Shown in pieces: positions 22,701-64,000 of a DNA stretch of 64,000 bases. Position numbers and translations under genes: made by a program. The notes under the pieces are model-generated. The model was not told the DNA's origin and searched no databases. It saw only the letters and a program-made list of their open reading frames with translations. Position 1 is the stretch's first letter, and each line of letters starts with the position of its first letter. Source of the stretch: Gouania willdenowi (taxonomy: Eukaryota); NCBI RefSeq assembly GCF_900634775.1, contig NC_041064.1, positions 1,380,717-1,444,716 on the forward strand, read 5' to 3'.

Positions 22701-23457
22701 ATACGATGCACTGGCACGCCTTGGGATGTGGGATAAAACTCATACTGAGCTTAACTGTAGACACGTTAATCCCAAATACCTGCTTTAGGTACTACCAGTC
22801 ACTCATTCCCCCTGTCCACAGCCACCACTATTATAGCTAAGCTTCACACTTCTCACTATACTGGCTTAATTACACAATATAATAAGCACAATATGTTCTA
22901 CAACTTCACATCTCACCCTCACTGTAAAATAATCTATTTTTCCCCACCCTTTCTATCTCCTACCTTGAGTCTCTCCTCCCTGCTCCCTGCCCACCCCCCC
23001 CTTAGGGAGGGCTGGTGATAGTCACAATTAAGCAATAAAATAAATCAATTTATATTATTGCAATAACAAAACATGCATTGCTGTCTCATAATGATTGCAC
23101 TTCTTGTAGTGTTGACCTTTGACAGCATGTGCAGACATGATAAAAAAAAAAAAAAAAAGATTATTTTCTGATTTGATCCAAACCACCACTATACCCAAAA
23201 GTAATAGAGTTTGAGGTTTCCAACTATGCAGAAAGTTTGGAAAAGGTGTTCCAACAATGAGCCTGTGCAAGTTAAAAAGAAAGTAATAATAATTCCTTTA
23301 TCATTACATAACTTGTAGAGCCATAGGTCTCTGAGGGAGGTTCCATCCTCAGGTCCAACCTCCACATCCCTGTGTTTGAGCAGGAATAATATATCAGTTG
23401 TACATCAGAGAGCCTGAGGCAGAACGCTGCAGAGCTCAGCAGGTTCTCCTCCTCACT

Positions 23458-23630
23458 ATGAGCACACCTGATGAAGCTGAGCTCTGCTATCCACACCTGG
23501 GAAACTCCTCGTGCAGGAGGATCATGCGCTCTCACTCAGTGTCTGTGCTCATTTCCATCATCCTGTCCTCCATCTCTGTGCTCACTGTGACCCTCAACCT
23601 GCTGGTCATCATCTCTATCTCACACTTCAA
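23458..23630 (+). CDS. TAAR-family GPCR, copy 1, exon 1 (N-terminus plus TM1).
   Basis: ATG at 23458-23460. Translation MSTPDEAELCYPHLGNSSCRRIMRSHSVSVLISIILSSISVLTVTLNLLVIISISHFK has an N-glycosylation site and the TM1 N1.50 motif. Donor is AA|GTATTG at 23631 (phase 2). Joined to exon 2 it reads ...SHFKKLHTPTNFLL, the typical TAAR TM1-ICL1 sequence. Confidence 0.8.
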
Positions 23631-23767
23631 GTATTGACATGTTCTGTTGTTTAATGAACTGTTGTTACATTGTTGAATGTTTCTGTGTTTGACTCCTGCT
23701 GTTATCTGCTTTGATCAGAACTGTCGTATAATATAATGATCAGTGTGTTGCTCTCTAACTCCTGCAG

Positions 23768-24578
23768 GAAGCTGCACACTCCCACCAACTTCCTCCTCCT
23801 CTCTCTCGCTCTGTCAGATTTCTCTGTGGGATTTGTTTGGATTTCACAGATCCTGCTCTTAGACGGCTGCTGGTATTTCAGTGATGGCTGGTGTGTCTTT
23901 AATGCATTCTTAACTGCTTTTGTCACCTGTGCTTCAGTAGGAACTGTTGTGCTGATATCAGTTGATCGTTATGTGGCTGTTTGTGATCCAATGCACTATT
24001 CTACCAAAGTTACTCCAAACACAGCAAAGATGAGTGTTGTCTTATGTTGGTTTTGTTTCTTTGTCTTTTACACTGCAATGCTCAAAGACAATATTGAACA
24101 TCCAGGTGGGTTTAATACCTGTGTAGGAGAGTGTGTAGTTTATTTACCTCCTGTTGCAGGAATCATTCATATCATTTTTACTTTTATCTTTCCAGTGAGT
24201 ATCATAGTGGTCTTGTATGTGAGAGTGTTTGCAGTGGCTGTGTCTCAGGCCCGGGCCATGCGCTCTCATGTTACAGTGGTGACACTTCATGGATCACTGA
24301 AGGTTAACAGATCAGAGCTGAAAGCAGCCAGAACTCTGGGTGTAGTGGTTGTTGTGTTCATAATGTGTTTATCTCCACTTTATATTGCTACACTTTCAGC
24401 AGGGTTTGCAGGGTTAAAGGCATCATCTTATGTTGCTTTTTCATGTGTACATTTAATCAACTCCTTACTAAACCCTGTGATCTATGCATTTCTGTATCCT
24501 TGGTTCAGGAAATGTGTGAAATGTATTTTTTCTCTTCAGATTCTGAAGTCTGGTTCCAGTGAGGCCAACATACTGTAA
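23768..24578 (+). CDS. TAAR-family GPCR, copy 1, exon 2 (TM2-TM7 plus C-terminus). Stop codon TAA at 24576-24578. Total ~327 aa.
   Basis: Acceptor is ctcctgcAG|G at 23765-23767. The translation contains DRY (ISVDRY), C3.25, P5.50, and the TAAR fingerprint NSLLNPVIYAFLYPWF (NSxxNPxxYxxxYxWF). Position 3.32 is Thr, not Asp. Confidence 0.85.
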
Positions 24579-24725
24579 AGAGAGAGAGAGAGAGACTGCT
24601 GATGTGTAATTGTATCACACTGTGCTGTTGATGTCTGAAAATCTTCTTCTCAAACTGTGATGATTGTAGAGAGCAGCTGCTCACATGCAAAGTTTGTGTT
24701 GATGATATTTGGGAGTTGCCCTTGA

Positions 24726-24731
24726 AATAAA
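24726..24731 (+). promoter_or_regulatory. Candidate polyadenylation signal AATAAA, ~150 bp downstream of the TAAR copy 1 stop. The same motif is conserved at the equivalent position in all four units.
   Basis: Motif read in the sequence. Assignment to the TAAR transcript is inference. Confidence 0.25.
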
Positions 24732-25865
24732 ATGTGGATGATCTGCACACTAATGATGATTTGATCCAATGATTGGGATAAGTGGTGAGAAATACTTTGA
24801 GGTGAGGAAACAAATGAATGTTATTATGTAGTGATGAAACCAAATCAGGGTCTTGACATGAACTCAGGCGTTTAACTTTAACTTTACAAGCAGGATAAAT
24901 TGATGATCTTTAAATGAAAAATCCTCAGACAAATGTGCACAAACACTTGAAGGCCTGAACCTCACTGCATTATTCCTTTCATTACAGTAAAAACAATCAG
25001 AATAGGAGAGTTACATGTAACACTGTCTCTGTGTGCAGCATCACTGCCTGAAATCTAATCTACAGATGTGCCAAATGTTATAAAACATGATGATGATATG
25101 ATTCAGTGCCAGTGAGAACGACTCAAAGAATCATTTGAAGACTTTTCTTCATTATTCTAAATAGAATTACAATATTAATGTGAACAATCCAAAAATGTCA
25201 GAATTTAAAGCAATTTAAACATAAATACATATTGTGTATTTTCTTGAAGCGTAAGTGTTAAAGGGATAAAGCTGTAAAAAGGGGTGTATATACTTGTGTA
25301 TGTGTGGACAGATGAATGTATAGTGATCACATGAATTGTCGACCTTTGTACCAGATCTTTTATTGAACAGCTCCGATGACAGATGACAAGAGTTGTACTA
25401 TTTAAGAGTCGTACTATTTAAGAGGAGTATTATTTAAGAGTAGTATTATTTCCCAGTGTAATTTAATCTAGTTCATCACAAGCAGAGTTTTAACAGACTA
25501 AGCACACATGCAGGTGGACGGAGGAAGAAGTCTGTCTCTCTTCATGTCTAAGTCTATCTTTCTATCTGCATCTGTTCAAGCACAGTTATCCTCCTTTGTA
25601 CCCAGCAGAGTCTGGTCCAAACGTGATTTATCCATATACACCAGGACAGTCTAGCTCTGCTCTCTGTGTCAAAACTCCACAATGTGTAAGTATTCAAACC
25701 AAAGCAACAGAGTGTCAGGGCCTACCAGGGACAGACATTGAAAAATACTGGTAGTGGGCCATCAAAATGGAACCTTTTATTCCTCAACCCCCATAAAATG
25801 TATTAATGACCAAATCAGTAAATGTAGTTCTCTTTCATAATCTTCGTTCGATGTCTAAGTAATGT

Positions 25866-28560
25866 AGAAGTAAGTAAGTATGTACATTTTTATTTATAAA
25901 GTGCTTTTTGCAGATAAAAATCACAAAGGGCTGTACAAAATAGAGGATAAGTTAAAACAACTGGAGCAACATCATAAAAGCATAATAAAATGTAAGTGAA
26001 TTTACAACAACAGGAGCATTTATTAAAGAATAATAAAAGTTGAAGAAAAAAATGTTTAACCAAAAGCTTTACTGAAAAGCGAAGTCTTCAGGTGATTCTT
26101 AAGAGTTCACACAGTCAAGCTTCCGGAGGGACTGGTGAAGGTCATTCCAGAGTCTGGGGGCCACAGCCTAGAACTCCAGGTCTCCCTGGGTTTTAAAATT
26201 AGCTTTTGGGATCTTTAGGAGACCCTGGCCTGAAGACCAAAGGCTGCGCCCTGAAGTGTAGGGGTACAACAAGTCTGCGATATACTGAGGGGCCTGACCA
26301 TGCAAAGCACTGAAAGTCAGGACTGCAATTTTAAACAATATGCAAAATTTGACCGGTAGCCAATGAAGACTTGTAAGAATCGGGGTAATTTGGGCTTGCA
26401 GCATCATTCTGTACGATCTGAAGTCTGTTCAGTCGACTTGTTAAAACAAGTAAAAACAAAATTACAATAATCAATGCAAGACAATATAAACGCGTGGATG
26501 ATCATTTCGAGATCTGATTATGACAAGAGATTTCTCACTTTAAAGATATTTCTCAGGGGGTAAAATCAGTTTTCGGTTAGTTGACAACAGTGCCCTTCCA
26601 AATACATTGACTGATCAAACACAACCACAAGGTTTCTGAGGTTGGTTTTCACAGATGAGTCCAGAGCACCAAGGGAGTTCTTAATCAGGGGGATCTTTTT
26701 ATCAGGAGCGATGATCAGAGTGTCGATTTGTTGGAGTTTATTTGAAGATAATTTGATGACAACCAGTTTTTGATTAAAGACACACAATCCAAGAACTCAG
26801 ATAAACAGTGAAACTCTTTGTCATAAAAGGAGCAATATAGCTGAATATCATCTGCATAGAAATAAGACACATTTTCAAAACCACAGATAAACCAACCAAG
26901 AGGCATCAGGTACAATAAAAACAGGCCCCAGAACAGAGCCCTGGGCTACTCCACATGACAGGTTGGACACATTGGACATTACATCGTTAATAGTAACAAA
27001 AGTTCTTCCATTTTTATAAGAAATAAACCACTGGAGAAAAGCTCCAGAAAACCTCATCTCAGATTTGAGTCGATCAACCAGTATACTGTGATCTACAGAG
27101 TCAAAGGCAGATGTTAAATGAAGTAAAACCAAAACTGTGTCGTGACCAGAGTCAGCAGCCGTCACCACGTCACTGGAAACTTTGACAAGAGCAGTTTCAG
27201 TGGAGTGGATTGACCTGAAGCCAGATATATATTTATCATGAAAATCATGCTGTTTCAAGAATGTGGTTAGCTGCTTATCCACAACTTTTTCCCTTATTTT
27301 TGACATGAGGAGAAGTTTAGATATGGGCCGGTAATTTATAGGCTCCCCGGGATCAATATGAGGCTTTTTAAGAATGGGATTCACAATAGCATGTTTAAAG
27401 AAGCTGGGGACTGAGCCAGATTGAAGTGAAAGGTTTATCAAATTTACCATCTAACACACAATGAGGGTTCATCTTTTCCACTAAAACCTGAACATCCAGT
27501 AGGCTGACAGGAGTGAAGGAGGACCTTGAGCACACAGGGGCAGATGCAGTGCACAAGCTAACCAAGGGAGGAGTGATACTGGCCCTAATGTCTTGCACTT
27601 TGTTCACAAATAAGTTCAGAAAATTATTGGAGTCATCCTTTGTGTGCACAGGCACATGGGGGATGGGGGCGCAACAAGATTTTCAATAGTGTCAAATAAG
27701 ACTTTTAGGGTTCTCTTGTTACGCAAAACAAGATTTGAGAAAGAAGCTGAGCAAGCAAGTTTTATTTCATTTAGCTCCATTATCATTTCTTTAAGAAGTG
27801 AATTCATCAAGAAATAATTGAGCACGACCAGGAGGTTGGTAGACTAAAACAAAGTTAAAAGGGTGTTCGTTTCCAACCTTACACGTCTGAAACTTGAAGG
27901 AGTTGTACGTGTTCGTGTCCATCAGTCTGCAGCCAAGAAAGTCACGGTATACTAGCCCCAAACTGCCTCCATGACGCGTGAGTTGAGGAGTCCCAACCAC
28001 GAAGCAGTCCGGAGGGCACAGTTCAATAAGATGAACAAACTCATTCTCCCGCTGCCAGGTCTCCATGAGGCACATAACATCCAGCTCGCGGGACATGAAA
28101 AAGTCCTTCAGGAGATGTGCCTTGTTGGCTAGTGATCTAGCATTCTACTGGCACCAGCGTAGACACTTCCTCGTAAGCCCATGAAGAGCTGTGGTACAGC
28201 GGCCGAAGGCATCCCTAATCCACACCACGGTGCCGGAGTCCACCGCGTCGACCCCATTTTTTGGCAGGCTTCCTCCGCAGGACAGGTGAGCGCAGCAGAT
28301 CAGCAGGTACGAAAGCCAAGTGTGGAAGAAGTCCAGATACTTGATCCTCAAAGTTGTAGTTTAGACACACCTCATAAGATTAGTTAAGATTAATAAGTGC
28401 CTGACGGTCATACACTATCAATGCAGTGATATTTTGGCACAAAATACTGAACAATGCAGCAACAAACAATAGTTTCAGCAGAGCAGACTCTATGGCCATC
28501 TTGTCAAGGCTATAGTGACCAGCTAACTGCCAGTGTTAGCGCTAGCTAACAACCTCAACT
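25866..28560 (-). mobile_element. L2-clade LINE, unit 1 copy, internally deleted. Contains a partial EN, the pre-RT region, RT, the ORF2 C-terminus, and a 3'UTR ending in a (GTAA)n-type tail at ~25866-25885.
   Basis: Minus-strand ORFs: EN MSRELDVMCLMETWQRENEFVHLIELCP...VLVYQPPGRAQLFLDEFTS (27791-28096). RT ...[53 protein letters not shown]...VLVLLHLTSAFDSVDHSILVDRLK (26875-27450). C-terminus ...LTSLHWLPVKFCILFKIAVLTFSALHGQAPQYIADLL (26168-26407). The 3' end aaagtgctttataaataaaaatgtacatacttacttac is typical of an L2 tail. The 5' boundary is approximate. Confidence 0.75.
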
Positions 28561-28829
28561 CCCTGCCTGTGCACCCACTCACAAGGGATAGAGGCCAAAG
28601 CCCCTCACACCAGAGGATTTGGAGACTCCAGAGCCTGACTCTTTTGATGCAAGAATAAAATATCGAGCCAAGACACACACCGGGTCTGCTCGAGCTGCTT
28701 GGGGCTGAAACATGCCTGGCTGGCGGTCGATGTTCCCGGCTTCTGTTGACACTGTGCGGTGTTCACAGTGAAGAGTCTCCACAGATGCCATGCTAGCTTG
28801 TCTGGGCTGGGGATCGGTGAAAGACATCC

Positions 28830-31800
28830 TTGAACTGGACTGTGGGGAGGATTAAGATGCCGCCTCTGAACCCCTCATATCAGAGAATGAAGAAGAAGAC
28901 ACTGTCTTCATCACTCCGGCCCTCCGTTGCCTCTCGGGATGGAGATGAGGGAAGCACACCAGCTCCAATTCTCAATGGCTCAAATATGCTCCATATGTGC
29001 AAACGCACTGCTGCCCGGCAAGCCATTCTCTGTCGGAAAAGATTTCCCACGGCCAATAGCAGCAGAAGCGCGCTGCCCGGTGCCTCATCCCTCAACTGTG
29101 AAGCAGACCCAGGCACCCCTGGAATGCCTGGGTCTGCTCCGCTTGCCTTCGGTGGAGCCACTTGTTCCGCAACTGTCAGCAGTGTCCTCCCGGAGGCTGA
29201 GCCTGCCATTCAAGTCTGACTGTCTCCAGTCAGCCCTGACTGAGAAGGCTTACAAGGCAGTGGCGCTTACTGCGAGAGCGCTCAACGTTCTCTCCTTGCA
29301 CACTGCCTATCAGGCTGAGCTGTGCAAGGTTTTTGGGCTTACTCAGGACCCGGCCAGGTGGGAGGAGTTGTCAGTTGTCACCGACCTGTGTCTTTGTGTT
29401 TACCGCTGAAGGAAACTGGTCGGACGGAGAAAAGGGCGATGTCCTGGACATGCCAGTAGTCCCAGAGGGGGTTTTTGGATCTGCATTGGCCTCGATGCAA
29501 TGGCGGTGGGAATCCAACAAGAAGGATGACGGGGCTCCCTGCCTCTGTTTCCCTTGTAAAACCCCAGCTCCATCTCAGGGCTTGCAGTTTAAAATGTCTA
29601 AACTGTCTGTGCCCTGGCCCATCCTGCCATTTCAAAACAGTCTTTCTGGCTGTTCCAATAAGCCTTCGGCCTCGGCGCAGCATGCCCAGGCCAGGAAGAA
29701 GAAGAGAGCAGCCTGACCGCCCCTCTCTCCTCCGGTGACACAGCTGGAAGTCCCTCGTTCTCCAGCTCCACCTATTTTGCTTTCGAGCTTGCACTCATGG
29801 GTCCCCCACGCCCCTGTCTCCCCGCTACCATGCCCCGTACCGGAGGTCGCCTTGAAAGACGGACATGTTTCGACAAAGGACTCAGCGGTTTCCCCTCTTT
29901 CATGTCCACAAGCATGCACACACACACACACAATTTATTTAAAATAATAACGTGTCTCGCTGTTGCACCCAGGCCACTGGCCAAGGGCGCAGGAAATGAA
30001 AGCATAATCTGTCACAATAAGCAGCGCAGTGACAGCTCCCACTGTTTCCCCTCGGATGTGCAAACGATGCTTGCCCTGCGGTATTTGATCTTGCATTTAT
30101 GTGCACTGAACAGATACAGGTTCAGGCTGCTTATGCATGCCTCCCTGCTGCGTCTTTTGTGACAGAACAATTGGTTCGTGTCTGTCTACCTGAAGGACGC
30201 GTATTTCCACATCTCAATATATCCTCCCCACAGAAAGTATCTGAAAAGCTTTCCGGGGGATAGGTTACATATACCGCTTGCTCACTCTCTTCTGCTTCTT
30301 GACAAAGGGACAAAGGCAGTCGCATTTTTCATCTCCTGCTCTCCTCCCTATCTACCCTTGCTGCTTGTTTTGTCTGCTGCTATTAGGAGACTCTCTTTGT
30401 ATTCATCCAAAACCGAAATTATGAAATTGGTCTGCTGGTCATTTAATGTTATTTATGAAGTTTTTCAATGAAAATACCAGGCCGAGGTGAGCCTGCATGC
30501 CCTGATGGCTCTTTTCGAGCTGGATACACAATGAATTCCTGGAAGGTAGTATGTCTGTCGCTATTCCCCATTGAGGACATCAAGGATATATACATGAATG
30601 GAATCATGTTAGCAGGGATGCTGCTAATTGGAGCTGGCGGCTATCTGATCTATCGCAAAGTCTGTATTACGTTTGCAGCCATTTTGGGAAGGCTGCCAGT
30701 CAACACTGAAGGTTTGGGCAGGGCGTTGAACTCTGACTATAAGGAATCGATCTTGGAAAGAATGGAGAGGATGTTTGATCCCACAATATTAGATTACTGT
30801 GACCAGAGACTTTCAAGGATCCTGGAAAGAATGCTAGCCTGTAACAAAAACAATTCACTATCAACGATTGGCCTCCCACAACATGCTTAAGGATGTGTCC
30901 AATTTCACTGGGATGTTTACAGATGTGACTCTCTGTCCTCATCCCAGCTGAACTCTTGGCTCTGAACCATAACATCCGACTGTATCAGAGGAGAGCAAAG
31001 TTTATTGAGTCTGTCTTCTCTGCTTTGGTTTGGTTTCCGGCCCTCTACCCCCCACCTTCCCCTCCAGCTCATGGAAGTGTGTGGAGAAGCGCCTACTACT
31101 GGCAGCACGCTGCAACCCCCCTCCCCCAGCGGCTGGATATCCCCTCCCCCTCTTTGCCCCCGACCCACATCCAACCCCCACCATCCCATGTGCTATACTG
31201 TGACTGTGTTATCTTATTTGTGTTTTTCTAGCTGAGAGGTTTTTCCTGGTTCTGTACTTTGTTCTCCTTTTGAGAATTCAGTTCATAATCAGTTTTTCCC
31301 CTAACCTCTCCTTCTGTTGTTTTCCCTTTTTTCATCTAAATATGGGGCGCCTCCAATGCCCTTGACCCACAATTCTGCCGTTTTTGTCTCTCATGTTATT
31401 TGTTACTGTTTTTCCATGTTTTTATCTGTGAAAAGCACTCTATAAATAAAGATTACTTTCTGACTTACTCCCTTTCTGTCTTTCTTTAAGCCCGAGGGTG
31501 TAAGTCTTGCTGAGACGGCAGGGCATCCGCTTGTCGGAGGTGGAAGCCAGAGCGCACACGCGTATGCTATTACCTGTCACCTGTTCTACCTGGGTTTTGT
31601 GATAAACTCGGAAAAGAGCATGTTGTCCCCAGCATAGGAAATGGCCTTCCTGGTACTATCCCTGCACTCAGCGTCTTTCACGACGCACCTCTCAGTGGAA
31701 CGAGTGAAAGCGTTCAGGGCATGCCTCACACTTTTCCAACTGTGCAAATCTGTTCAATTCAGATTATGTCTTCGGGAATTCGGGCTGATGGCATCTGTCA

Positions 31801-33490
31801 TCCTCCTACTCTGCCTCGGTCGCCTCCAGAATTCTAGCTGTGGGTGGACTCGTGCGGGCTGGACCACATACAGAATGGCACACGGAGGGTACTGGTCAAG
31901 CCGGAGTGTGCCGAGGCTTTATACAGAGTCCCGGTTTTCATGACGCACGGTGTGCCTACCGGGTGCTGTTATGTCCAGGAAGGTGGTCACCATGGACACC
32001 AGCCTGACAGGTTGGGGTGGGGTTCACGAGGGCCGGTCTCTGAGGGGCCACTGGAGTGTGGACCTCCAGCGCTCTCGCATAAATTATTTGGAGCTTTCAG
32101 CGGTTTTACTCACTGAAAATTATCCTCCCGTCTCTCATGGGACACCATATCCTGGTGAGGACGAACAATACAACGACGGTGGCGTATATCAACGCCAGGG
32201 TGGATTGCTCTGCTGTCGGTTTCATATGTTGGCACGCAAACTGATTCTGTGGAGTTGTGGTTGCTTCCTCTCTCTGAGGGCGACACACATCCAGAGAGTC
32301 CTGAACACGGACGCTGACCTGTTGTCCAAGGACGCGCTGTTGTCCAAGGACGCGCTGCTGTACAGGGTGTGGATGTTACACCCGTACATGGTGCAACAGT
32401 TACCGACCCGTTACGAGTTCTTTTCACCGAGGCAGGAGATGCACAGTGTACGCTGTTTAACTCCCTGCCCAGCACGGGCGCTCCCCTCGGCATACTATAC
32501 AGATTGCCTGAGCGTTGTTTGGGGATGGTGTCACCAGAAGTGACATACCCCGTTTCAGTGTCCGGTAGGAATGATTTTGTCATTTTTGCAGGATCTGATT
32601 GACGAACGGAAAGACTGTGACAGTGTGTTTGGCAGTGATTGCCGCCTGTCACGTGGGCTTTGGGAAGAAAACAGCAACACCTAACCCCTAACCCAACACC
32701 CAGTGATTTGCCGTTTTATGAAAGGAGCATGCAGGCTCCTCCCCGTGTCCAGACCGCTGGTGCCACCGTGGGATCTGGCAGTAGAGGGACAAAAATGTCT
32801 TTTTTTTGAACCGCTAAGGGAGACAGACTTTAAGTTTGTCTCTCTGAAAACAGTTTTGTTACTGGCTCTGGTGGGTCAGTGACATCCATGCGTTTTTGGT
32901 ACACCCGTCATTCGCTCAGCTCTTCCCGGGCAATGTAAGGCTGATTTTGAAGACGAACTTGGCCTTTGTACTGAAGGTGTTGGGCTCATGTTCTCCAATT
33001 GACCTCATGACCTTCTCTATCTCATAGGGTGAGCAGCGGCCTCATTTGTTGTATCCGGTCTTTGCAGTGCACGCTTACAGTGCATGGACATGACGGGGAG
33101 CTTCAACTGTTCGTCTCCTGGGCTAATCTTCATAAGGGAAAACCTGTCACAAAGCAGCGCCTGTCCCCCTTTGTGGTGGAGACTGGTGCCCTGCTGTGCC
33201 TGGGTGATAGAGGTTGCCACCGTGTTCTGTGGGGCCAGTATAGTTCTGGGGGTGCCGCGGAGTGAGTTTCCGGCTGTGCTGCTTGGCACGTCCCTGGGGC
33301 CTCGCTGTGCCGCTTGTGTTCCTCTCCAGTTGCTTGCTGTCTGGACAGGCCGTGCTCACAGCAGACAGGCCTCCTACACAGACACTACACTTAATTTCCA
33401 GCTGGTCTGGCTCTTTCACGTTGTGTATCACACCCCTATCCAACCCATGGGGGTCTGGATGATGGGGGCCCCGTGCCACTAATGCTTTTT
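28830..33490 (+). mobile_element. DIRS-like YR retroelement, unit 1 copy. Degenerate: gag-like region, RT, RNase H and a tyrosine recombinase, all frameshifted.
   Basis: RT is shown by ...LCALNRYRFRLLMHASLLRLL.QNNWFMSVYLKDAYFHISIYPPHRKYLKSFPGDRLHIP (30080-30300). RNase H is shown by MDTSLTGWGGVHEGRSLRGHWSVDLQRSRINYLELSAVLL...VYQRQGGLLCC...LRATHIQRVLNTDADLLSKD (31990-32350). YR is shown by PVSRPLVPPWDLAV... and ...LQLFVSWANLHKGKPVTKQRLSPFVVE (32740-33200). The 5' boundary is approximate. Confidence 0.7.
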
Positions 33491-34002
33491 ATGTTTTATT
33501 AAGCTTAACATGTAAACATTATCAGTGCGGGTGGAAAAAGTATGTGAGCAGGCCGTTTCTGAGAGAGATCTTAATTTTTTTTTTTTTTTTCTTTTAACCT
33601 TGTCTGCACATGAGGGAGATCTTAATAAATGTGAGTAAAGTACAATCATCATCTGAATCTGTTCTAGTGTCTAAAGGACCCTTAACTGAGCAAGTGATTT
33701 GTCACACAAGTATAAGAACACCTCAAACCTGGACAATTTGGTGTTATCAAATTAATAGAAATGGCATCTGGATGGTGTAAAGCAAACTGTATGATGTCAT
33801 CAAGAATAGACGCCCTCACAGGAGCAAGAATACATTCTGTTTTTATCATTACATAACTTGTAGAGCCATAGGTCTCTGAGGGAGGTTCCATCCTCAGGTC
33901 CAACCTCCACATCCCTGTGTTTGAGCAGGAATAATATATCAGTTGTACATCAGAGAGCCTGAGGCAGAACGCTGCAGAGCTCAGCAGGTTCTCCTCCTCA
34001 CT

Positions 34003-34175
34003 ATGAGCACACCTGATGAAGCTGAGCTCTGCTATCCACACCTGGGAAACTCCTCGTGCAGGAGGATCATGCGCTCTCACTCAGTGTCTGTGCTCATTTC
34101 CATCATCCTGTCCTCCATCTCTGTGCTCACTGTGACCCTCAACCTGCTGGTCATCATCTCTATCTCACACTTCAA
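34003..34175 (+). CDS. TAAR-family GPCR, copy 2, exon 1.
   Basis: Identical in protein to exon 1 of copy 1. Donor is AA|GTAATG at 34176. Confidence 0.8.
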
Positions 34176-34312
34176 GTAATGACATGTTCTGTTGTTTAAT
34201 GAACTGTTGTTACATTGTTGAATGTTTCTGTGTTTGACTCCTGCTGTTATCTGCTTTGATCAGAACTGTCGTATAATATAATGATCAGTGTGTTGCTCTC
34301 TAACTCCTGCAG

Positions 34313-54400: not shown

Positions 54401-55975
54401 CCTGGTGAAGATGGACAATACAACGACGATTGCGTATATCAACGCCAGGGTGGATTGCTCTGCTGTTGGTTGCATATGTTGGCACGCAAACTGATTCTGT
54501 GGAGTTGTGGTTGCTTCCTCTCTCACACACATCCAGAGAATCCTGGACACGGACGCTAACCTGTTGTCCAAGGACGCGCTGCTGTACGGGGTGTGGATGT
54601 TACACCCGTATGTAGTGCAACAGTTCCTGACCCGTTCCGAGTTCTGTTCACCGAGGCAGGAGATACACAGTGTACGCTGTTTAACTCCCTGCACAGCACG
54701 GGCGCTCCCCTCGGCAATAGGCGCACTAGCGCACATTTGGCCGCGCTTGTTTCTTTATGTTATTCCCCCAGTTGGCTCTGTTGCCCCCTATTCTGACCAG
54801 GGTGAGGGAGCATGAAACCACTGATCCTGGTGGCTCCACATTGGCCTGCGATGCACTGGCTGGTAGAGATTTACCAGTTACTGCGCGCTCGCCCCTGGCA
54901 GCTCCCGCTGCGCAGGGACTTGCTGTCGCAGGGAAAGGGCACGGTTTTCCACCCAAATCCGGAGTGCTTGGTGCTGTGGGTTTCACCCCTGAGTGGTTCA
55001 ATCTTTCAGCTGTGGGATTCTCACAGTGTGATCTCTACTATACAGATTGCCCGAGCATTTGGGGATGGTGTCACCAGAAGGGACATACCCCTTTTTAGTG
55101 TCCGGCAAGAATGATTTTGTCATTTCTGCAGGATCTGATTAACGAACGGAAAGACTGTGACAGTGTGTTTGGCAGTGATTGCCACTTGTCATGTGGGCTT
55201 TGGGAAGAAAACAGCAAGCCAACACCCAGTGATTTGCCATTTTGTGAAAGGAGCATGCAGCCTCCTCCCCGTGTCCAGACCGCTGGTGCCACCGTGGGAT
55301 CTGGCAGTGGAGGGACAAAAATGTCTTTCTTTTGAACCGCTAAGGGAGACAGACTTCAAGTTTGTTTCTCTGAAAACAGTTTTGTCACTGGCTCTGGTGG
55401 GTCAGTGACATCCATGCGTTTTTGGTGCACCCGTCATCCGCTCAGCTCTTCCCGGGCAATGTAAGGCTGATTTTGAAGACGAACTTGGCCTTTGTACTGA
55501 AGGTGTTTGGCTCATGTTCTCCAATTGACCTCATGGCCTTCTCTATCTTATAGGGTGAGCAGCGGCCTCATATGTTGTATCCGGTCTTTGCAGTGCACGC
55601 TTACAGTGCATGGACATGACGGGGAGCTTCAACTGTTCGTCTTCTGGGCTAATCTTCATAAGGGAAAACCTGTCACAAAGCAGCGCCTGTCCCCCTTTGT
55701 GGTGGAGACTGGTACCCTGCTGTGCCTGGGGGGTAGAGGTTGCCGGCGTGCTCTGTGGGGCCTGTATGGTTCTGGGGGTGCCACGTGGTCCCTGGGGCCT
55801 CGCGGCGCCGCTTGCGTTCCTCTCCGGTTGCTTGCTGTCTGGACAGGCCGTGCTCACAGCAAACAGGCCTCCTACACAGACAATTCACTTAATTTCCAAC
55901 TGGTCTGGCTCTTTCACGTTGTGCATCACACCCCTATCCAACCCATGGGGGTCTGATTGATTGGGGTCCCGTGCC
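51490..55975 (+). mobile_element. DIRS-like YR retroelement, unit 3 copy, degenerate. It carries a short nested LINE tail insert and retains a ~370-bp internal segment (54700-55110) that is missing from units 1 and 2.
   Basis: Paralogous ORFs: RT ~53190-53300, RNase H 54119-54560, an additional domain MKPLILVAPHWPAMHWLVEIYQLLRARPWQLPL (54812-55114), and the YR region 55507-55960. Confidence 0.7.
51835..52102 (+). mobile_element. Very short 5'-truncated copy (3'UTR only, ~270 bp) of the (TGAT)n-tailed LINE family, inserted in the unit 3 DIRS gag-like region.
   Basis: Nearly identical to 38459-38717 (...cacagcataacgtggatggctgttcatcataggaatggg...gcgctatacaaataaaagattgattgattgattgattga). Absent at the orthologous site of unit 1 (29035-29095) and unit 2. 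Confidence 0.7.
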
Positions 55976-56445
55976 ACTAATGCTTTTTATGTTTTATTAA
56001 GCTTAACATGTAAACATCAGTCTTGTGGAAAAAGTGTGTGTGCAGGCCGTCTCTGAGGGAGATCTTAAAAAATGTGAGTAAAGTAGAATCATCATCTGAA
56101 TCTGTTCTAGTGTCTAAAGGACCCTTAACTGAGCAAATGATTTGTCACACAAGTATAAGAACACCTGAAACCTGGACAATTTGGTGTTATCAAATTAATA
56201 GAAACGACATCTGGATGGTGTAAAGCAACCTGTATGATGTCATCAAGAATAGACGCCCTCACAGGAGCAAGAATACTTTCTGTTTTTATCATTACGTAAC
56301 TTGTAGAACCATAGGTCTCTGAGGGAGGTTCCATCCTCAGGTCCAGCCTCCACATCCCTGTGTTTGAGCAGGAATAATATATCAGTTGTACATCAGAGAG
56401 CCTGAGGCAGAACGCTGCAGAGCTCAGCAGGTTCTCCTCCTCACT

Positions 56446-56618
56446 ATGAGCACACCTGATGAAGCTGAGCTCTGCTATCCACACCTGGGAAACTCCTCGT
56501 GCAGGAGGATCATGCGCTCTCACTCAGTGTCTGTGCTCATTTCCATCATCCTGTCCTCCATCTCTGTGCTCACTGTGACCCTCAACCTGCTGGTCATCAT
56601 CTCTATCTCACACTTCAA
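56446..56618 (+). CDS. TAAR-family GPCR, copy 4, exon 1.
   Basis: Identical in protein to exon 1 of copy 1. Confidence 0.8.
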
Positions 56619-56755
56619 GTAATGACATGTTCTGTTGTTTAATGAACTGTTGTTACATTGTTGAATGTTTCTGTGTTTGACTCCTGCTGTTATCTGCTTT
56701 GATCAGAACTGTCGTATAATATAATGATCAGTGTGTTGCTCTCTAACTCCTGCAG

Positions 56756-57566
56756 GAAGCTGCACACTCCCACCAACTTCCTCCTCCTCTCTCTCGCTCT
56801 GTCAGATTTCTCTGTGGGATTTGTTTGGATTTTTCAGATCCTGCTCTTAGACGGCTGCTGGTATTTCAGTGATGGCTGGTGTGTCTTTAATGCATTCTTA
56901 ACTTCTATTTCAACTGCTGCTTCAGTAGGAACTGTTGTGCTGATATCAGTTGATCGTTATGTGGCTGTTTGTGATCCAATTCACTATTCTACCAAAGTTA
57001 CTCCAAACACAGCAAAGATGAGTGTTGTCTTATGTTGGTTTTGTTCTGTGGTCTGTTACACTACAATGCTCAAAGACAATATAAAACATCCAGGTGGGTT
57101 TAATACCTGTGTAGGAGAGTGTGTAATTTATGTACCTCCGGTTGCAGGAATTGTGAGTCTCCTTCTGAAATTCCTCATTCCAGTGAGTATCATAGTGGTC
57201 TTGTATGTGAGAGTGTTTGCAGTGGCTGTGTCTCAGGCCCGGGCCATGCGCTCTCATGTTACAGTGGTGACACTTCATGGATCACTGAAGGTTAACAGAT
57301 CAGAGCTGAAAGCAGCCAGAGCTCTGGGTGTAGTGGTTGTTGTGTCTATAATGTGTTTATCTCCACTTTATATTGCTACACTTTCAGCAGGGTTTGCAGG
57401 GTTAAAGGCATCATCTTATGTTGCTTTTTTATGTGTGTTTTTAATCAACTCCTTACTAAACCCTGTGATCTATGCATTTCTGTATCCTTGGTTCAGGAAA
57501 TGTGTGAAATGTATTTTTTCTCTTCAGATTCTGAAGTCTGGTTCCAGTGAGGCCAACATACTGTAA
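56756..57566 (+). CDS. TAAR-family GPCR, copy 4, exon 2. Stop at 57564-57566. This is the most divergent copy.
   Basis: Same scaffold as the others. TM5 is the copy 2 type (AGIVSLLLKFLIP). Unique changes in TM3 (FLTSISTAASVGT), TM4 (CWFCSVVCYTTML), ECL2 (DNIKHPGG) and TM7 (AFLCVFLINS). Confidence 0.85.
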
Positions 57567-58861
57567 AGAGAGAGAGAGAGAGACTGCTGATGTGTAATTG
57601 TATCACACTGTGCTGTTGATGTCTGAAAATCTTCTTCTCAAACTGTGATGATTGTAGAGAGCAGCTGCTCACATGCAAAGTTTGTGTTGATGATATTTGG
57701 GAGTTGCCCTTGAAATAAAATGTGGATGATCTGCACACTAATGATGATTTGATCCAATGATTGGGATAAGTGGTGAGAAATACTTTGAGGTGAGGAAACA
57801 AATGAATGTTATTATGTAGTGATGAAACCAAATCAGGGTCTTGACATGAACTCAGGCGTTTAACTTTAACTTTACAAGCAGGATAAATTGATGATCTTTA
57901 AATGAAAAATCCTCAGACAAATGTGAACAAACACTTGAAGGCCTGAACCTCACTGCATTATTCCTTTCATAACAGTAAAAACAATCAGAATAGGAGAGTT
58001 ACATGTAACACTGTCTCTGTGTGCAGCATCACTGCCTGAAATCTAATCTACAGATGTGCCAAATGTTATAAAACATGATGATGATATGATTCAGTGCCAG
58101 TGAGAACGACTCAAAGAATCATTTGAAGACTTTTCTTGATTATTCTAAATAGAATTACAATATTAATGTGAATAATCAGAATTTAAAGCAATTTAAACAT
58201 AAATACATATTGTGTATTTTCTTGAAGCGTAAGTGTTAAAGGGATAAAGCTGTAAAAAGGGGTGTATATACTTGTGTATGTGTGGACAGATGAATGTATA
58301 GTGGATCACATGAATTGTCGACCTTTGTACCAGATCTTTTATTGAACAGCTCCGATGACAGATGACAAGAGTCATACTATTTAAGAGTCGTACTATTTAA
58401 GAGTAGTATTATTTAAGAGTAGTATTATTTAAGAGTAGTATTATTTCCCAGTGTAATTTAATCTAGTTCGTCACAAGCAGAGTTTTAACAGACTAAGCAC
58501 ACATGCAGGTGGACGGAGGAAGAAGTCTGTCTCTCTTCATGTCTAAGTCTATCTTTCTATCTGCATCTGTTCAAGCACAGTTATCCTCCTTTGTACCCAG
58601 CAGAGTCTGGTCCAAACGTGATTTATCCATATACACCAGGACAGTCTAGCTCTGCTCTCTGTGTCAAAACTGCACAATGTGTAAGTATTCAAACCAAAGC
58701 AACAGAGTGTCAGGGCCTACCAGGGACAGACATTGAAAAATACTGGTAGTGGGCCATCAAAATGGAACATTTTATTCCTCAACCCCCATAAAATGTATTA
58801 ATGACCAAATCAGTAAATGTAGTTCTCTTTCATAATCTGGTTCGATGTCTAAGTAATGTAG

Positions 58862-61560
58862 AAGTAAGTAAGTATGTACATTTTTATTTATAAAGTGCTT
58901 TTTGCAGATAAAAATCACAAAGGGCTGTACAAAATAGAGGATAAGTTAAAACAACTGGAGCAACATCATAAAAGCATAATAAAATGTAAGTGAATTTACA
59001 ACAACAGGAGCATTTATTAAAGAATAATAAAAGTTGAAAAAAAAAATGTTTAACCAAAAGCTTTACTGAAAAGTGAAGTCTTCAGGTGATTCTTAAGAGT
59101 TCACACAGTCAAGCTTCCGGAGGGACTGGTGAAGGTCATTCCAGAGTCTGGGGGCCACAGCCTAGAACTCCAGGTCTCCCTGGGTTTTAAAATTAGCTTT
59201 TGGGATCTTTAGGAGACCCTGGCCTGAAGACCAAAGGCTGCGCCCTGAAGTGGAGGGGTACAACAAGTCTGCGATATACTGAGGGGCCTGACCATGCAAA
59301 GCACTGAAAGTCAGGACTGCAATTTTAAACAATATGCAAAATTTGACCGGTAGCCAATGAAGACTTGTAAGAATCGGGGTAATTTGGGCTTGCAGCATCA
59401 TTCTGTACGATCTGAAGTCTGCTCAGTCGACTTGTTAAAACAAGTAAAAACAAAATTACAATAATCAATGCAAGACGATATAAACGCGTGGATGATCATT
59501 TCGAGATCTGATTATGACAAGAGATTTCTCACTTTAAAGATATTTCTCAGGGGGTAAAATCAGTTTTCGGTCAGTTGACAACAGTGCCCTTCCAAATACA
59601 TTGACTGATCAAACACAACCACAAGGTTTCTGAGGTTGGTTTTCACAGATGAGTCCAGAGCACCAAGGGAGTTCTTAATCAGGGGGATCTTTTTATCAGG
59701 AGCGATGATCAGAGTGTCGATTTGTTGGAGTTTATTTGAAGATAATTTGATGACAACCAGTTTTTGATTAAAGACACACAATCCAAGAACTCAGATAAAC
59801 AGTGAAACTCTTTGTCATAAAAGGAGCAATATAGCTGAATATCATCTGCATAGAAATAAGACACATTTTCAAAACCACGGATAAACCAACCAAGAGGCAT
59901 CAGGTACAATAAAAACAAAACAGGCCCCAGAACAGAGCCCTGGGCTACTCCACATGACAGGTTGGACACATTGGACATTACATCGTTAATAGTAACAAAA
60001 GTTCTTCCATTTTTATAAGAAATAAACCACTGGAGAAAAGCTCCAGAAAACCTCATCTCAGATTTGAGTCGATCAACCAGTATACTGTGATCTACAGAGT
60101 CAAAGGCAGATGTTAAATGAAGTAAAACCAAAACTGTGTCGTGACCAGAGTCAGCAGCCGTCACCACGTCACTGGAAACTTTGACAAGAGCAGTTTCAGT
60201 GGAGTGGATTGACCTGAAGCCAGATATATATTTATCATGAAAATCATGCTGTTTCAAGAATGTGGTTAGCTGCTTATCCACAACTTTTTCCCTTATTTTT
60301 GACATGAGGAGAAGTTTAGATATGGGCCGGTAATTTATAGGCTCCCCGGGATCAATATGAGGCTTTTTAAGAATGGGATTCACAATAGCATGTTTAAAGA
60401 AGCTGGGGACTGAGCCAGATTGAAGTGAAAGGTTTATCAAATTTACCATCTAACACGCAATGAGGGTTCATCTTTCCCACTAAAACCTGAACATCCAGTA
60501 GGCTGACAGGAGTGAAGGAGGACCTTGAGCACACAGGGGCTGATGCAGTGCACAAGCTAACCAAGGGAGGAGTGATACTGGCCCTAATGTCTTGCACTTT
60601 GTTCACAAATAAGTTTAGAAAATTATTGGAGTCATCCTTTGTGTGCACAGGCACATGGGGGGATGGGGGCGCAACAAGATTTTCAATAGTGTCAAATAAG
60701 ACTTTTGGGGTTCTCTTGTTACGCAAAACAAGATTTGAGAAAGAAGCTGAGCAAGCAACTTTTATTTCATTTAGCTCCATTATCATTTCTTTAAGAAGTG
60801 AATTCATCAAGAAATTATTGAGCACGACCAGGAGGTTGGTAGACTAAAACAAAGTTAAAAGGGTGTTCGTTTCCAACCTTACACGTCTGAAACTTGAAGG
60901 AGTTGTACGTGTTCGTGTCCATCAGTCTGCAGCCAAGAAAGTCACGGTATACTAGCCCCAAACTGCCTCCATGACGCGTGAGTTGAGGAGTCCCAACCAG
61001 GAAGCAGTCCGGAGGGCACAGTTCAATAAGATGAACAAACTCATTCTCCCGCTGCCAGGTCTCCATGAGGCACAAAACATCCAGCTCGCGGGACATGAAA
61101 AAGTCCTTCAGGAGATGTGCTTTGTTGGCTAGTGATCTAGCATTCTACTGGCACCAGCGTAGACACTTCCTCGTAAGCCCATGGAGAGCTGTGGTGCAGC
61201 GGCCGAAGGGATCCCTAATCCACACCACGGTGCCGGAGTCCACCGCGTCGACCCCATTTTTTGGCAGGCTTCCTCCGCGGGACAGGTGAGCGCAGCAGAT
61301 CAGCAGGTACTAAAGCCAAGTGTGGAAGAAGTCCAGATACTTGATCCTCAAAGTTGTAGTTTAGACACACCTCATAAGATTAGTTAAGATTAATAAGTGC
61401 CTGACGGTCATACACTATCAATGCAGTGATATTTTGGCACAAAATACCGAACAATGCAGCAACAAACAATAGTTTCAGCAGAGCAGACGCTAGCGTCATC
61501 TTGTCAAGGCTATAGTGACCAGCTAGCTGTCAGTGTTAGCCTCTAGCTAACAACCTCAAC
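58862..61560 (-). mobile_element. L2-clade LINE, unit 4 copy.
   Basis: Minus-strand ORFs 59709-60449 (RT), 60394-60825, 60815-61096 (EN) and 59162-59401 (C-terminus). Confidence 0.75.
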
Positions 61561-61829
61561 TCCCTGCCTGTGCACCCACTCACAAGGGATAGAGGCCAAA
61601 GCCCCTCACACCAGAGGATTCGGAGACTCCAGAGCCCAACTCTTTCGATGCAAGAATAAAATATCGAGCCAATACACACACCGGGTCTGCTCGAGCTGCT
61701 TGGGGCTGGAACATGCCTGGCTGGCGGTCAATGTTCCCGGCTCCTGTTGACACTGTGCGGTGTTCACAGTGAAGAGTCTCCACAGACGCCATGCTAGCTT
61801 GTCTGGGCTGGGGATCGGTGAAAGACATC

Positions 61830-64000
61830 CTTGAACTGGACTGTGGGCAGGATTAAGATGCCGCCTCTGAACCCCTCATATCAGAGAATGAAGAGGAAGA
61901 CACTGTCTTCATCACTCCAGCCCTCCGTTGCCTCTCGGAATGGAGATGAGGGAAGCACACCAGCTGCAATTCTCAATGGCACGAATATGCTCGATGTGTG
62001 CAAACGCACTCGATGTGTGCTGCCCGGCAAGCCATCCTCTGTCGGAAAAGAATTCCCACAGCCAAGGGTGCACCAAGGCATTTTTTCCCGTCTTCCGGAG
62101 CTGCTCGAAGTGGCGCATTCATGGAAGGACCGCCCCATTAGCAGCAGAAGCGCGCTGCCCGGTGCCTCATCCCCACACCCAACACAGCATAACGTGGATG
62201 GCTGTTCATCATAGGAATGGGATCCACACAAGGTTCCTGCTGCTTAACAGAAGGTTTTCCTTGCCGCCATGATGAATTCATGTTGGGTGTGGGATACATA
62301 TGTATGTGTATATACGTATATATGCATATGTGTGTATCCATAAAATGAAGAGTCCGTCCTTAAGACTGCTCTACTGTAAAGTGTCTTGAGATACCATTGG
62401 TTATGATTTGGCGCTATACAAATAAAAGATTGATTGATTGATTGATTGATTGATCCCTCAACTGTGAAGCAGACCCAGGCACCCCTGGAATGCCTGGGTA
62501 TTGCTCCACTTTCTTCCGGTAGAGCCACTCGTTAAGCAACTGTCAGCAGTGTCCTCCCGGATGCCGAGCCTGCCATCCAAGTCTGACCGTCTCCAGTCAG
62601 CCCTGACTGAGAAGGCTTACAAGGCAGTGGCGCTTACTGTAAGAGTGTTCAACGTCCTCTCCCTGCACACTGCCTATCAGGCTGAGCTCTGCAAGGTTTT
62701 TGGGCCAACTCAGGACCCGGCAGGTGGGAGGAGATGTCAGTTGTCACCGACCTGTGTCTTTAACGCTAAGCAGTCCAGGCGACAGGGAGAGTGATGGAGC
62801 TATGGTGCTGCGGGAAACCTGTCGGACAGAGAAATGGGTGATGTCCTGGACATGCCATTAGTCCCAGAGGGGGTTTTTGGATCCGCAATGGTGATGTGAA
62901 GCAAACAAGAAGGATGACGAGGCACCCCGCCTCTGTTTCTCTTGTAAAACCCCAGCTGCATCTCAGGGCTTGCAGTTTAAAATGTCTAAACTGTCTGTGC
63001 CCTGGCCCGTCCTGCCGTCTCAAAACAGTCTTTCTGGCTGGTCCAATAAGCCTTCGGCCTCGGCTACAGCTCCGCTGGCACAGCCTGCGCAGCATGCCCA
63101 GGCCAGGAAGAAGAAGAGAGCAGCCTGACAGTAACACAGCTGGAAGTCCCTCATTTTCCAGCTCCACCTATTTTGCTTTCAAGCTTGCACTCGTGGGTCC
63201 CCCATGCCCCTGTCTCCCTGCTACCACGCCTCAGACCGGAGGTCGCCTTGAAAGATGGACATGTTACGATGAAGGACTCAGCGGTTTCCCCTCTTTCATG
63301 TCCACAAGCATGCACACACACACACACACGATTTATTTAAAATAATAACATGTGTCTCGCTGTTGCACCCAAGCCAAGGGCCGAGGGCGCAGGAAATGAA
63401 AGCAAAATCTGTCACAATAAGCAGCACGGTGACAGCTCCCTTTGTTTCCCCTCGGGTGAGGAGACGATGCTCGCCCTGCGGTATTTGCTCTATCTTGGAT
63501 CTATGTGCACTGAACAGATACAGGTTCAGGCTGCTTACGCACACCTCCCTGCTGCGTCTTGTGCGACAGAACAATTGGTTCACGTCTGTCGATCTGAAGG
63601 ACGCGTATTTCCACATCTCAATATATCCTCCCCACAGAAAGTATCTGAAAAGCTTTCCGGGGGATAGGTTACATATACCGCGTGCTCACTCTCTTCTGCT
63701 TCTTGATAAAGGGACAAAGGCAGTCGCATTTTTCTTCTCCTGCTCTCCTCCCTATCTACCCTTGCTGCTTGTTTTGTCTGCTGCTATTAGGAGACTCTCT
63801 TTGTATTCATTCAAAACCGAAACTATGAAATTGGTCTGCTGGTCATTTAATGTTATTTATAAAGTTTTTTCAATGAAAAGACCAGGCCGAGGTGAGCCTG
63901 CATGCCCTGATGGCTCTTTTTGAGCTGGATACACAATGAATTCCTGGAAGGTCATCTGTCTGTCGCTATTTTCCATTGAGAACATCGAGGATATATACAT
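61830..64000 (+). mobile_element. DIRS-like YR retroelement, unit 4 copy. Cut off by the window end. It contains the same short LINE-tail insert as unit 3.
   Basis: Paralogous to 51490-53900. The RT motif WFTSVDLKDAYFHISIYPPHRKYLKSF lies at ~63580. Confidence 0.7.
62171..62453 (+). mobile_element. Short 5'-truncated copy of the (TGAT)n-tailed LINE, at the same position as in unit 3.
   Basis: Nearly identical to 51835-52102. Confidence 0.7.

Follow-up and report, generated by a model that had tools for sequence, protein, structure and literature searches.

INTRODUCTION

Concerted evolution with gene-conversion mosaics is known in clusters of odorant receptor (OR) genes and in the major histocompatibility complex (MHC). 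Among chemosensory receptors of percomorph fishes, the two-exon genes of class III, or 'family A', of the trace amine-associated receptors (TAARs) were reportedly the subject of Hussain et al. 2009. Here we describe a head-to-tail array of genes that we assign to this class, in a window of 64,000 nt of the genome of the blunt-snouted clingfish, Gouania willdenowi (all coordinates are those of the window). The reading that we favor, with a probability of roughly 0.75, is that the array is genuine, that it comprises four or more, and probably five or more, intact TAAR genes of class III, and that its repeat units have been homogenized while short tracts of the ligand pocket were reassorted among them.

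The hallmark of family A is one intron in intracellular loop 1 (ICL1), near codon 55-57, with a Phe-Lys or Phe-Arg junction. Such an intron is present in ~80% of the TAARs of cichlids, 86% of those of stickleback, 74% of those of medaka and 61% of those of fugu (PMC4415300). Most clade III TAARs lack the aspartate at position 3.32 but use that at 5.42 (Li et al. 2015, PMC4695389), and only 'a few' TAARs lack these sites (Guo et al. 2022, PMC8890504). The TAAR fingerprint in transmembrane helix 7 (TM7), NSxxNPxx[YH]xxx[YF]xWF, is used here as defined in PMC8890504. The Gouania assembly fGouWil2.1 contains 117 complete TAARs (110 of class III), 29 pseudogenes, 5 truncated genes and 1 edge gene (Policarpo et al. 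2022, PMC9438307, Suppl. Data 1), and the mean for ray-finned fishes is ~51 TAARs (PMC9438307).

RESULTS

Structure and family identity of the genes

An initial annotation of the window had placed four same-strand, head-to-tail receptor genes in it, and translation, tblastn and self-BLASTN bore out their number, orientation and exon coordinates. All four lie on the forward strand, at 23458..24578 (gene 1, exons 23458-23630 and 23768-24578), 34003..35123 (gene 2, exons 34003-34175 and 34313-35123), 46115..47235 (gene 3, exons 46115-46287 and 46425-47235) and 56446..57566 (gene 4, exons 56446-56618 and 56756-57566). The lengths given before, 173 nt for exon 1, 137 nt for the intron and 811 nt for exon 2, hold for every copy, as do the intact reading frames and the GT/AG splice sites. 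Each exon pair yields an uninterrupted protein of 327 aa with an ATG start and a TAA stop. Because 173 = 57 × 3 + 2, the intron is in phase 2, inside codon 58. The junction in unit 1 reads ttc aa|gtattg...ctgcag|g aag; the acceptor CTGCAG is common to all four genes, and the donor is GTATTG in unit 1 (23631-23636) versus GTAATG in units 2-4, which is the sole difference among the introns. When tblastn was run with the unit-1 protein, it returned exactly the eight known exons and no further gene copy in 1-23296.

The unit-1 protein was 100% identical to XP_028292703.1 ('TAAR 13c-like'), which is encoded on a chromosome sequence of 38,978,045 bp, and the unit-4 protein was identical to RefSeq XP_028291861.1 ('TAAR 8a-like'). 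These RefSeq names ('TAAR13c-like', 'TAAR8a-like') are best-hit labels and not statements of orthology, since overall similarity is moderate. For units 2 and 3, no identical protein was found in a collection of 15 billion sequences, and these two intact genes were probably missed or modeled otherwise by annotation pipelines. A fifth copy, XP_028291864.1, is 93-98% identical to the window copies, differs from all of them and is encoded on the same chromosome.

The DRY motif, C3.25, P5.50 and the TAAR fingerprint, here NSLLNPVIYAFLYPWF, were found in all four proteins as had been claimed (Ballesteros-Weinstein numbering, anchored on DRY, the CWxP equivalent, P5.50 and NPxxY and checked on an alignment with TAAR13c). 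NSLLNPVIYAFLYPWF matches the TM7 fingerprint exactly and is also present in the fifth copy. Pfam 7tm_1 matched residues 47-297 with E = 1.1e-42, covering profile positions 2-260 of 260. In a search against all Protein Data Bank (PDB) chains, the top 15 distinct sequences were all TAARs (3.8e-59 to 2.1e-34), with zebrafish TAAR13d/c/a/e first (3.8e-59 to 6e-55), followed by mouse/human TAAR9, TAAR1 and TAAR7f; the best non-TAAR match was the histamine H2 receptor (1e-27). Best matches in another aminergic family of G protein-coupled receptors (GPCRs) had been named beforehand as the result that would speak against a TAAR identity, and every best match was a TAAR. Likewise, among the 120 database matches listed, every one to which a source gave a specific name was a TAAR.

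The intron falls within codon 58 (F57-K58-K59), in ICL1, with GT..AG borders, and fits the percomorph family A/class III intron. We therefore classify the genes, from their sequence, as class III (clade III) TAARs of the intron-bearing percomorph subgroup. With the percomorph class III/family A TAARs of Azzouzi et al. 2015 (PMC4415300) they have in common a restriction to teleosts, the TM7 fingerprint, the lack of Asp3.32, a single ICL1 intron, a tandem cluster and a lineage-specific expansion. The intron was called phase 0 in that study (PMC4415300), whereas that of the array is unambiguously phase 2 (aa|gt...ag|g). The best full-length matches of solved structure were zebrafish TAAR13c and TAAR13d, receptors for cadaverine/diamines (PDB 9m2s and 9m0x; 1e-58 and 1e-59), which share with the array DRY, NPxxY, the TAAR fingerprint, C3.25 and the cysteines of extracellular loop 2 (ECL2).

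For comparison with relatives we used a homologue sample, the best 120 matches to unit 1; the sequences compared were 43 from Gouania (38 paralogues and the 5 array copies) and the 81 closest homologues from other fishes. In a midpoint-rooted neighbor-joining tree built from TAAR homologues only, the 43 Gouania sequences formed one clade with no other species inside, and the array itself was monophyletic. Its nearest paralogues were 77-78% identical and were located on different chromosome-sized sequences. The array is part of a species-specific radiation of ~110 class III TAARs. The Gouania paralogues are spread over at least 6 chromosome-sized sequences, and their N-terminus, TM1-2, ICL3 and C-terminus are nearly invariant at an overall identity of only 60-78%.

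Divergence of the gene region is highest in exon 2

The near-identity between units reported in the initial annotation held for the flanks, exon 1 and the intron, which are 99-100% identical between units, and failed for exon 2, which diverges more than any other part of the gene-proximal 2.7 kb. When the four units were aligned, variable columns numbered 3 of 161 in the 5′ flank, none of 173 in exon 1, 1 of 137 in the intron (4 of 471 for these three pooled) and 46 of 811 in exon 2; pairwise substitutions in the 1.47-kb 3′ flank amounted to 0.6-1.0%. Exon 2 was 2.8-6.7 times more divergent than the pooled adjoining non-coding sequence in five of the six pairs (Fisher p 9e-4 to 4e-11), the exception being units 1 and 3, with 7 differing sites only. 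Gene 4 is the most divergent of the four window copies: exon 2 accounted for 43 of the 50 differences between units 4 and 1 and for 40 of the 46 between units 4 and 3. When unit 2 was compared with unit 1 or 3, 16 of the 27-29 differences were packed in 26 bp (24164-24189; permutation p < 5e-5).

Non-synonymous changes predominated among the variable codons (27, versus 7 synonymous), and Nei-Gojobori ratios of non-synonymous to synonymous divergence (dN/dS) ranged from 0.58 to 0.97. Synonymous divergence was itself raised, with dS of 0.024-0.051 in the same five pairs versus a flank divergence of 0.006-0.010. Changes at two or three positions of one codon were frequent (e.g. GTC/TCA, CAT/AGT and TTT/CTG).

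The variable sites did not agree on one grouping of the units. The partition of units 1+3 versus 2+4 had 24 supporting sites, 18 of them within 23929-24189 and the other six isolated single sites. Elsewhere, 87 sites supported units 1+2 versus 3+4; these include 23845-6 and 25410/25414, which flank 23929-24189, and most of the tail of the unit. No history without recombination or conversion can account for the conflict between the two partitions. Both marks of a mosaic, conflicting partitions in adjacent segments and clustered differences, were present. A single block duplication of units 1-2 into 3-4 was considered and rejected: the TM5 patch fits it, but the tails pair 1+2 and 3+4 and the structure of unit 2 is unique.

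If the copies were simply very young tandem duplicates, point mutation after duplication and positive selection in the pocket would have to account for this profile. The 99-100% identity of the flanks and the pocket-enriched excess of non-synonymous over synonymous variable codons are what such a history predicts. It does not predict a dN/dS that stays at or below 1, nor a synonymous divergence of the coding sequence ~2.5-5 times that of the flanks in five of six pairs, nor 16 differences in 26 bp with codon changes of 2-3 nt beside flanks that differ by <1%; and the conflict between the 13/24 and 12/34 partitions would demand recombination or conversion anyway. We regard this explanation as decidedly unlikely. 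The best reading of the sequences is that the copies are mosaics, produced by concerted evolution with patch shuffling, since dN/dS is ~0.6-1.0, synonymous divergence is also raised and the site partitions conflict. The initial annotation had left a choice between recent duplication and ongoing homogenization; the dS excess and the partitions favor homogenization with mosaicism over plain young duplication.

Variation is concentrated in patches of the ligand pocket

One patch, in ECL2/TM5 (24138..24189, forward strand; equivalents 34683-34734, 46795-46846 and 57126-57177), is hypervariable and part of a wider tract of codons 182-199. There are two alleles in the window: units 1 and 3 encode IIHIIFTFIF, and units 2 and 4 encode IVSLLLKFLI; the fifth copy carries VSLLLKFLI. 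Three further patches, given here in unit 1 on the forward strand, lie in other helices. That of TM3 (23916..23929, codons 108-112, positions 3.33-3.37) reads AFVTC in units 1 and 3, AFVTS in unit 2 and SISTA in unit 4 and copy 5. The TM4 patch (24058..24075, codons 155-161, positions 4.53-4.59) is FFVFYTA in units 1 and 3, FFVFYTT in unit 2 and SVVCYTT in unit 4 and copy 5, and the TM7 patch (24442..24451, codons 283-286, positions 7.39-7.42) is S..HL in units 1-3, L..FL in unit 4 and S..FF in copy 5.

Each gene therefore has its own set of pocket residues. Gene 1 has T3.32, H5.42, T5.46, F6.44 and H7.42; gene 2 has S5.42, K5.46 and S6.44; gene 3 has H5.42, T5.46, S6.44 and I6.55; and gene 4 joins the TM3 allele SISTA and the TM4 allele SVVC to S5.42, K5.46, L7.39 and F7.42. 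The fifth copy is one more combination of the few patch alleles. Because the five proteins carry different combinations of these alleles, no single duplication history fits them.

The variable positions include 3.33, 3.37, 5.42, 5.43, 5.46, 6.55, 7.39, 7.42 and 7.43. With a general list of class A orthosteric positions, variation was found at 9 of 25 canonical orthosteric positions versus 20 of 302 others (Fisher p = 7.5e-5). Across the 38 Gouania paralogues, the sites that vary in the array had twice the entropy of other sites (Mann-Whitney p = 8e-7). Exon 1, ICL3, helix 8 and the C-terminus were invariant among the copies. The one unusual feature of the array, as far as its sequence goes, is that the copies differ almost solely in short ligand-pocket patches; variation focused in this way is what chemoreceptor diversification, rather than neutral decay, would be expected to produce.

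The patches could also have come from outside the array, by ectopic micro-conversion, in which diverged TAAR paralogues or pseudogenes at other places in the genome donated short tracts to young duplicates. The very high divergence of the patches, the synonymous changes that adjoin them and the frequent multi-nucleotide codon changes are all in keeping with such a source, potential donors abound (~110 class III TAARs and 29 pseudogenes in Gouania), and related motifs exist in some paralogues, for example LLLKF in P0023 and LFLKF in P0062. A search of the 119 homologues for an external donor found none: the best patch identity was 0.42-0.74, never above the whole-protein match, which is weak evidence against this source as the sample holds annotated proteins only. 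We consider ectopic donors an unlikely origin of the patches and prefer reassortment of tracts among the units of the array.

Loss of the amine-binding residues and substitution at position 6.44

In the alignment with TAAR13c, Thr107 of the array takes the place of Asp112 (3.32), and His192 or Ser192 that of Asp5.42. At 5.42, units 1 and 3 carry His, and Ser is found in units 2 and 4 and in copy 5; all lack the Asp5.42 that is typical, although not strictly defining, of clade III. All five copies thus lack both amine-binding aspartates, 3.32 and 5.42, and have Leu or Phe at 7.43. Units 2 and 4 share Lys5.46 with the fifth copy, and units 1-3 have His7.42. TAAR13c differs in having both Asp3.32 and Asp5.42 and a single exon, whereas the array has Thr3.32, His/Ser5.42, Leu for Trp6.48, Leu/Phe for Tyr7.43 and two exons. 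Most described class III TAARs also keep Asp5.42 (PMC4695389), unlike the array with its His or Ser.

The loss extends to the Gouania relatives. Asp3.32 was found in 0 of 43 Gouania sequences versus 50 of the 81 closest homologues of other fishes, and Asp3.32 together with Asp5.42 in 0 of 43 versus 47 of 81. Asp5.42 was present in 77 of the 81 homologues from other species. Neither Asp3.32 nor an acidic residue at 5.42 was present in 20 of the 38 Gouania paralogues and in all 5 array copies, versus 1 of 81 in other fishes, and Tyr7.43 was retained in 14 of the 38 paralogues versus 74 of 81. Given that Asp3.32 and Asp5.42 are missing, the array proteins probably do not bind amines by either of the known TAAR salt-bridge modes. 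The missing residues lower confidence in amine detection by a known mode, not in TAAR membership. On the basis of this membership, we presume that the genes encode olfactory GPCRs of olfactory sensory neurons.

A further substitution affects Phe6.44 of the P-I-F activation core, which is Phe in 118 of 119 homologues. In units 2-4 and copy 5, codon 255 has changed at two nucleotides, from TTC to TCT (24358-24359; equivalents 34903-4, 47015-6 and 57346-7), and encodes Ser6.44; Phe is found only in unit 1, which also retains the majority residue Thr6.36. These two residues suggest that unit 1, which lies at the array edge next to its original upstream sequence, is the nearest to the founder and that S6.44 spread during growth of the array.

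These substitutions could mean that some or all of the copies, although intact, are redundant genes under relaxed constraint that are turning into pseudogenes. A dN/dS near 1, the change of Phe6.44 to Ser in four of five copies, the loss of both amine-binding aspartates and of Tyr7.43, the weaker donor GTATTG of unit 1 and the 29 TAAR pseudogenes of Gouania all fit such a decay. However, the five copies contain no stop codon, frameshift or splice-site loss, and the changes sit at pocket and hypervariable sites, with none in exon 1, ICL3, helix 8 or the C-terminus, where neutral decay would be uniform. The divergence of exon 2 also exceeds that of the neutral flanks, so that it is not merely an accumulation of neutral mutations. 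We judge decay to be improbable as the main explanation, about as much so as ectopic donors, and retain the view of intact genes with reassorted pocket tracts.

Repeat units and their retroelements

The distances from ATG to ATG are 10,545, 12,112 and 10,331 bp. Self-BLASTN and MAFFT placed the starts of the forward-strand units at 23297, 33842, 45954 and 56285, with long blocks that are 94-99% identical. Unit 1, the leftmost, spans 23297..33841 (10,545 bp); unit 2 spans 33842..45953 (12,112 bp), its extra length being due to a unit-specific insertion; unit 3 spans 45954..56284 (10,331 bp); and unit 4 spans 56285..64000, where the window end truncates it ~2.3-2.6 kb before its expected end. 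Unit 4 can be aligned to unit 3 only as far as ~53620 of the latter. Each unit opens with a 161-bp flank and the two-exon gene, continues through a conserved 3′ flank (~1.5 kb) and a reverse transcriptase (RT) fragment in antisense orientation, and closes with a degenerate retroelement tail.

Alignment of the upstream regions set the left boundary of the array at 23297 and did not support the ~400 bp of common 5′ flank that had been noted before. For unit 1 the common flank is 161 bp (23297-23457), and homology stops abruptly at 23297; the longer upstream identity is confined to units 2-4 and consists of the tail of whichever unit comes before. The 161-bp flank (forward strand; equivalents 33842-34002, 45954-46114 and 56285-56445) is the sole upstream sequence common to all four genes, and its three variable sites all belong to unit 4. 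We presume that the core promoter lies in this flank; inspection by eye only, for O/E or homeodomain promoter motifs, found nothing convincing. The 3′ flank of the genes contains a 16-bp minisatellite, AAGAGTMGTAYTATTT, with four copies in unit 2 (35933-35996), four in unit 3 (48045-48108) and five in unit 4 (58367-58446). This minisatellite lies near the point, ~25185 in the coordinates of unit 1, where unit 4 loses register with the other units; the alignment of the 3′ flank has 28-29 gap columns.

All units carry a fragment of an RT open reading frame (ORF) on the reverse strand, antisense to the gene (26875..27450; equivalents 38933-39673, 49371-50111 and 59709-60449; RVT_1 5e-12 to 1.5e-22), whose motifs we read as those of a LINE-like element. 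Unit 2 alone has an insertion of 2.1 kb (36598..38726, forward strand) that takes the place of 456 bp found in units 1, 3 and 4; a stop-free RT segment of 532 codons lies at 36572-38167 (RVT_1 4.7e-35). Unit 2 also has a non-homologous replaced segment at ~39.8-40.4 kb. Units 3 and 4 have ~380 bp extra, and the tail deletions differ among units.

The GC-rich tail is a degenerate retroelement pol relic with RT and RNase H (29266..33181, forward strand; approximate equivalents 41470-45330, 52280-55706 and 62630-64000, the last cut by the window end). Homologues of its best-preserved segment, 31944-32540, carry PF17917 and PF00078 (E down to 1.6e-35), domains that do not tell DIRS apart from other RT/RNase H elements, and a weak RVT_1 match lies at 52996-53565. 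The element had been called DIRS-like. The RT/RNase H relic was recovered, and neither terminal repeats nor a tyrosine recombinase was found, so that the label is plausible and unproven. No tyrosine recombinase was matched by Pfam in 20 ORFs or stop-free segments of the tail and upstream region, although absence is not decisive in a degenerate element, and no direct or inverted repeats of at least 40 bp were present in 24579-34002. Motifs such as DLKDAYFHI and PILDLRALNRYL are at most suggestive of DIRS. A diverged relative of the tail element, collinear in tblastx and with ~70% nucleotide identity, lies outside the unit at 13560..16256 (forward strand), 7 kb upstream of the array.

Two mechanisms were considered and rejected. 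The gene does not appear to sit inside one intact mobile element, as no terminal repeats of at least 40 bp were found in 24579-34002. Nor did the array arise from crossing-over between the element at 13.5-16.3 kb and the copies in the tails: the boundary at 23297 is outside that element, which did not mediate the founding duplication because it lies outside the repeat unit. Alignment of the upstream region revealed no evident homology between the founding breakpoints, 23297 and the tail end.

Near-identical tandem repeats of 10 kb are difficult to assemble and polish, and protein databases lack two of the four genes. Both the copy number, through false haplotype duplication or repeat expansion, and the mosaic pattern might on these grounds be artefacts of assembly. 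The units are, however, set apart by the 2.1-kb transposable element insertion, the replaced segment, the 380-bp indel and the tail deletions, and in the MAFFT alignment the tails of unit pairs diverge by up to 6-13%. Had a haplotype been duplicated, two copies would be expected in place of the four or five distinct ones. The assembly reaches chromosome level (38.98-Mb sequence), and the window contains zero N, hence no assembly gaps within the array. An artefact is accordingly very improbable and, of all the explanations considered, the least likely to be correct. The prediction that the array runs past the window agrees with the fifth copy, XP_028291864.1, which is encoded on the same 38.98-Mb chromosome and outside the window; continuation past 64000 is consistent with this one protein, the sole item that bears on it.

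Other features of the window

The window has several features outside the array. An apparent 3′ end of an integrin beta gene, with the transmembrane and cytoplasmic exon, lies at 1903-2322 on the forward strand (Pfam Integrin_b_cyt 2e-10); we take it to resemble integrin beta-5. A GT-rich micro/minisatellite of ~800 bp at 388-1177, with a higher-order period of ~190 bp (4.2 copies, 85% matches), yields long spurious ORFs in all frames. The long stop-free segment at 20408-21816 (forward strand) had no significant Pfam match and presumably resembles the C-terminal part of LINE ORF2. Another, at 6282-6962 on the reverse strand, had sub-threshold Pfam matches only (Baculo_FP_2nd, 1.4e-4).

DISCUSSION

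The history that we propose would begin with one founding duplication, with breakpoints at 23297 and at the tail end, followed by amplification through unequal crossing-over among the units. The units would still be undergoing homogenization by crossing-over and gene conversion, so that identity stays at 99-100% in the flanks, in exon 1, in the intron and over most of exon 2, while the pocket tracts of TM3, TM4, ECL2/TM5, TM6 and TM7 would have persisted as old, diverged alleles that were reassorted to give each gene its own combination. The array resembles the conversion mosaics of OR clusters and the MHC in its near-identical flanks and framework, diverged ligand-contact tracts, conflicting partitions and copy-specific allele combinations. 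It differs from them in that no donor or direction has been identified and in that dN/dS does not exceed 1.

Several points weigh against this reading. The dN/dS values, none above 1, give no sign of positive selection. Ser6.44 in four of five copies could mean functional impairment, as may GTATTG in unit 1, which weakens a donor that is already non-consensus. The homologue sample, the best 120 matches, is skewed toward relatives of unit 1. Finally, where repeats are nearly identical, polishing may overstate how alike the flanks are (100%), and it may distort the phasing of the patches and overstate their combinations.

A more far-reaching version of the same history is germline cassette shuffling, in which old TM3, TM4, TM5 and TM7 tracts would be recombined within a homogenized framework into new odorant specificities, in a Gouania radiation that has abandoned amines. 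Non-amine ligands would be suggested by the loss of Asp3.32 in 43 of 43 sequences and of Asp5.42 in more than half, and from the gain of His5.42, Lys5.46 and His7.42 in the array. If this version is true, the ligands might be non-amine and possibly acidic. We put it forward tentatively, as a possibility with more in its favor than ectopic donors or decay but well short of an even chance.

The gene family, the gene structure, the tandem arrangement and the species-level expansion are already known, and RefSeq lists two of the four genes. The cluster is of an ordinary kind, since 117 complete TAARs (110 of class III) had already been counted in fGouWil2.1. Our literature search found no paper that discusses Gouania TAARs specifically and no report of conversion mosaics, or patch shuffling, in TAARs. 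What deserves the attention of specialists is the inverted divergence profile with its mosaic reassortment, the loss of the aspartates, F6.44S and the two unlisted intact genes; in the case of units 2 and 3, annotation pipelines apparently missed intact, near-identical copies. The array is a compact example of pocket diversity that is kept or reshuffled inside an otherwise homogenized set of genes, and a TAAR lineage without the amine sites bears on the question of what clade III TAARs that lack Asp5.42 detect.

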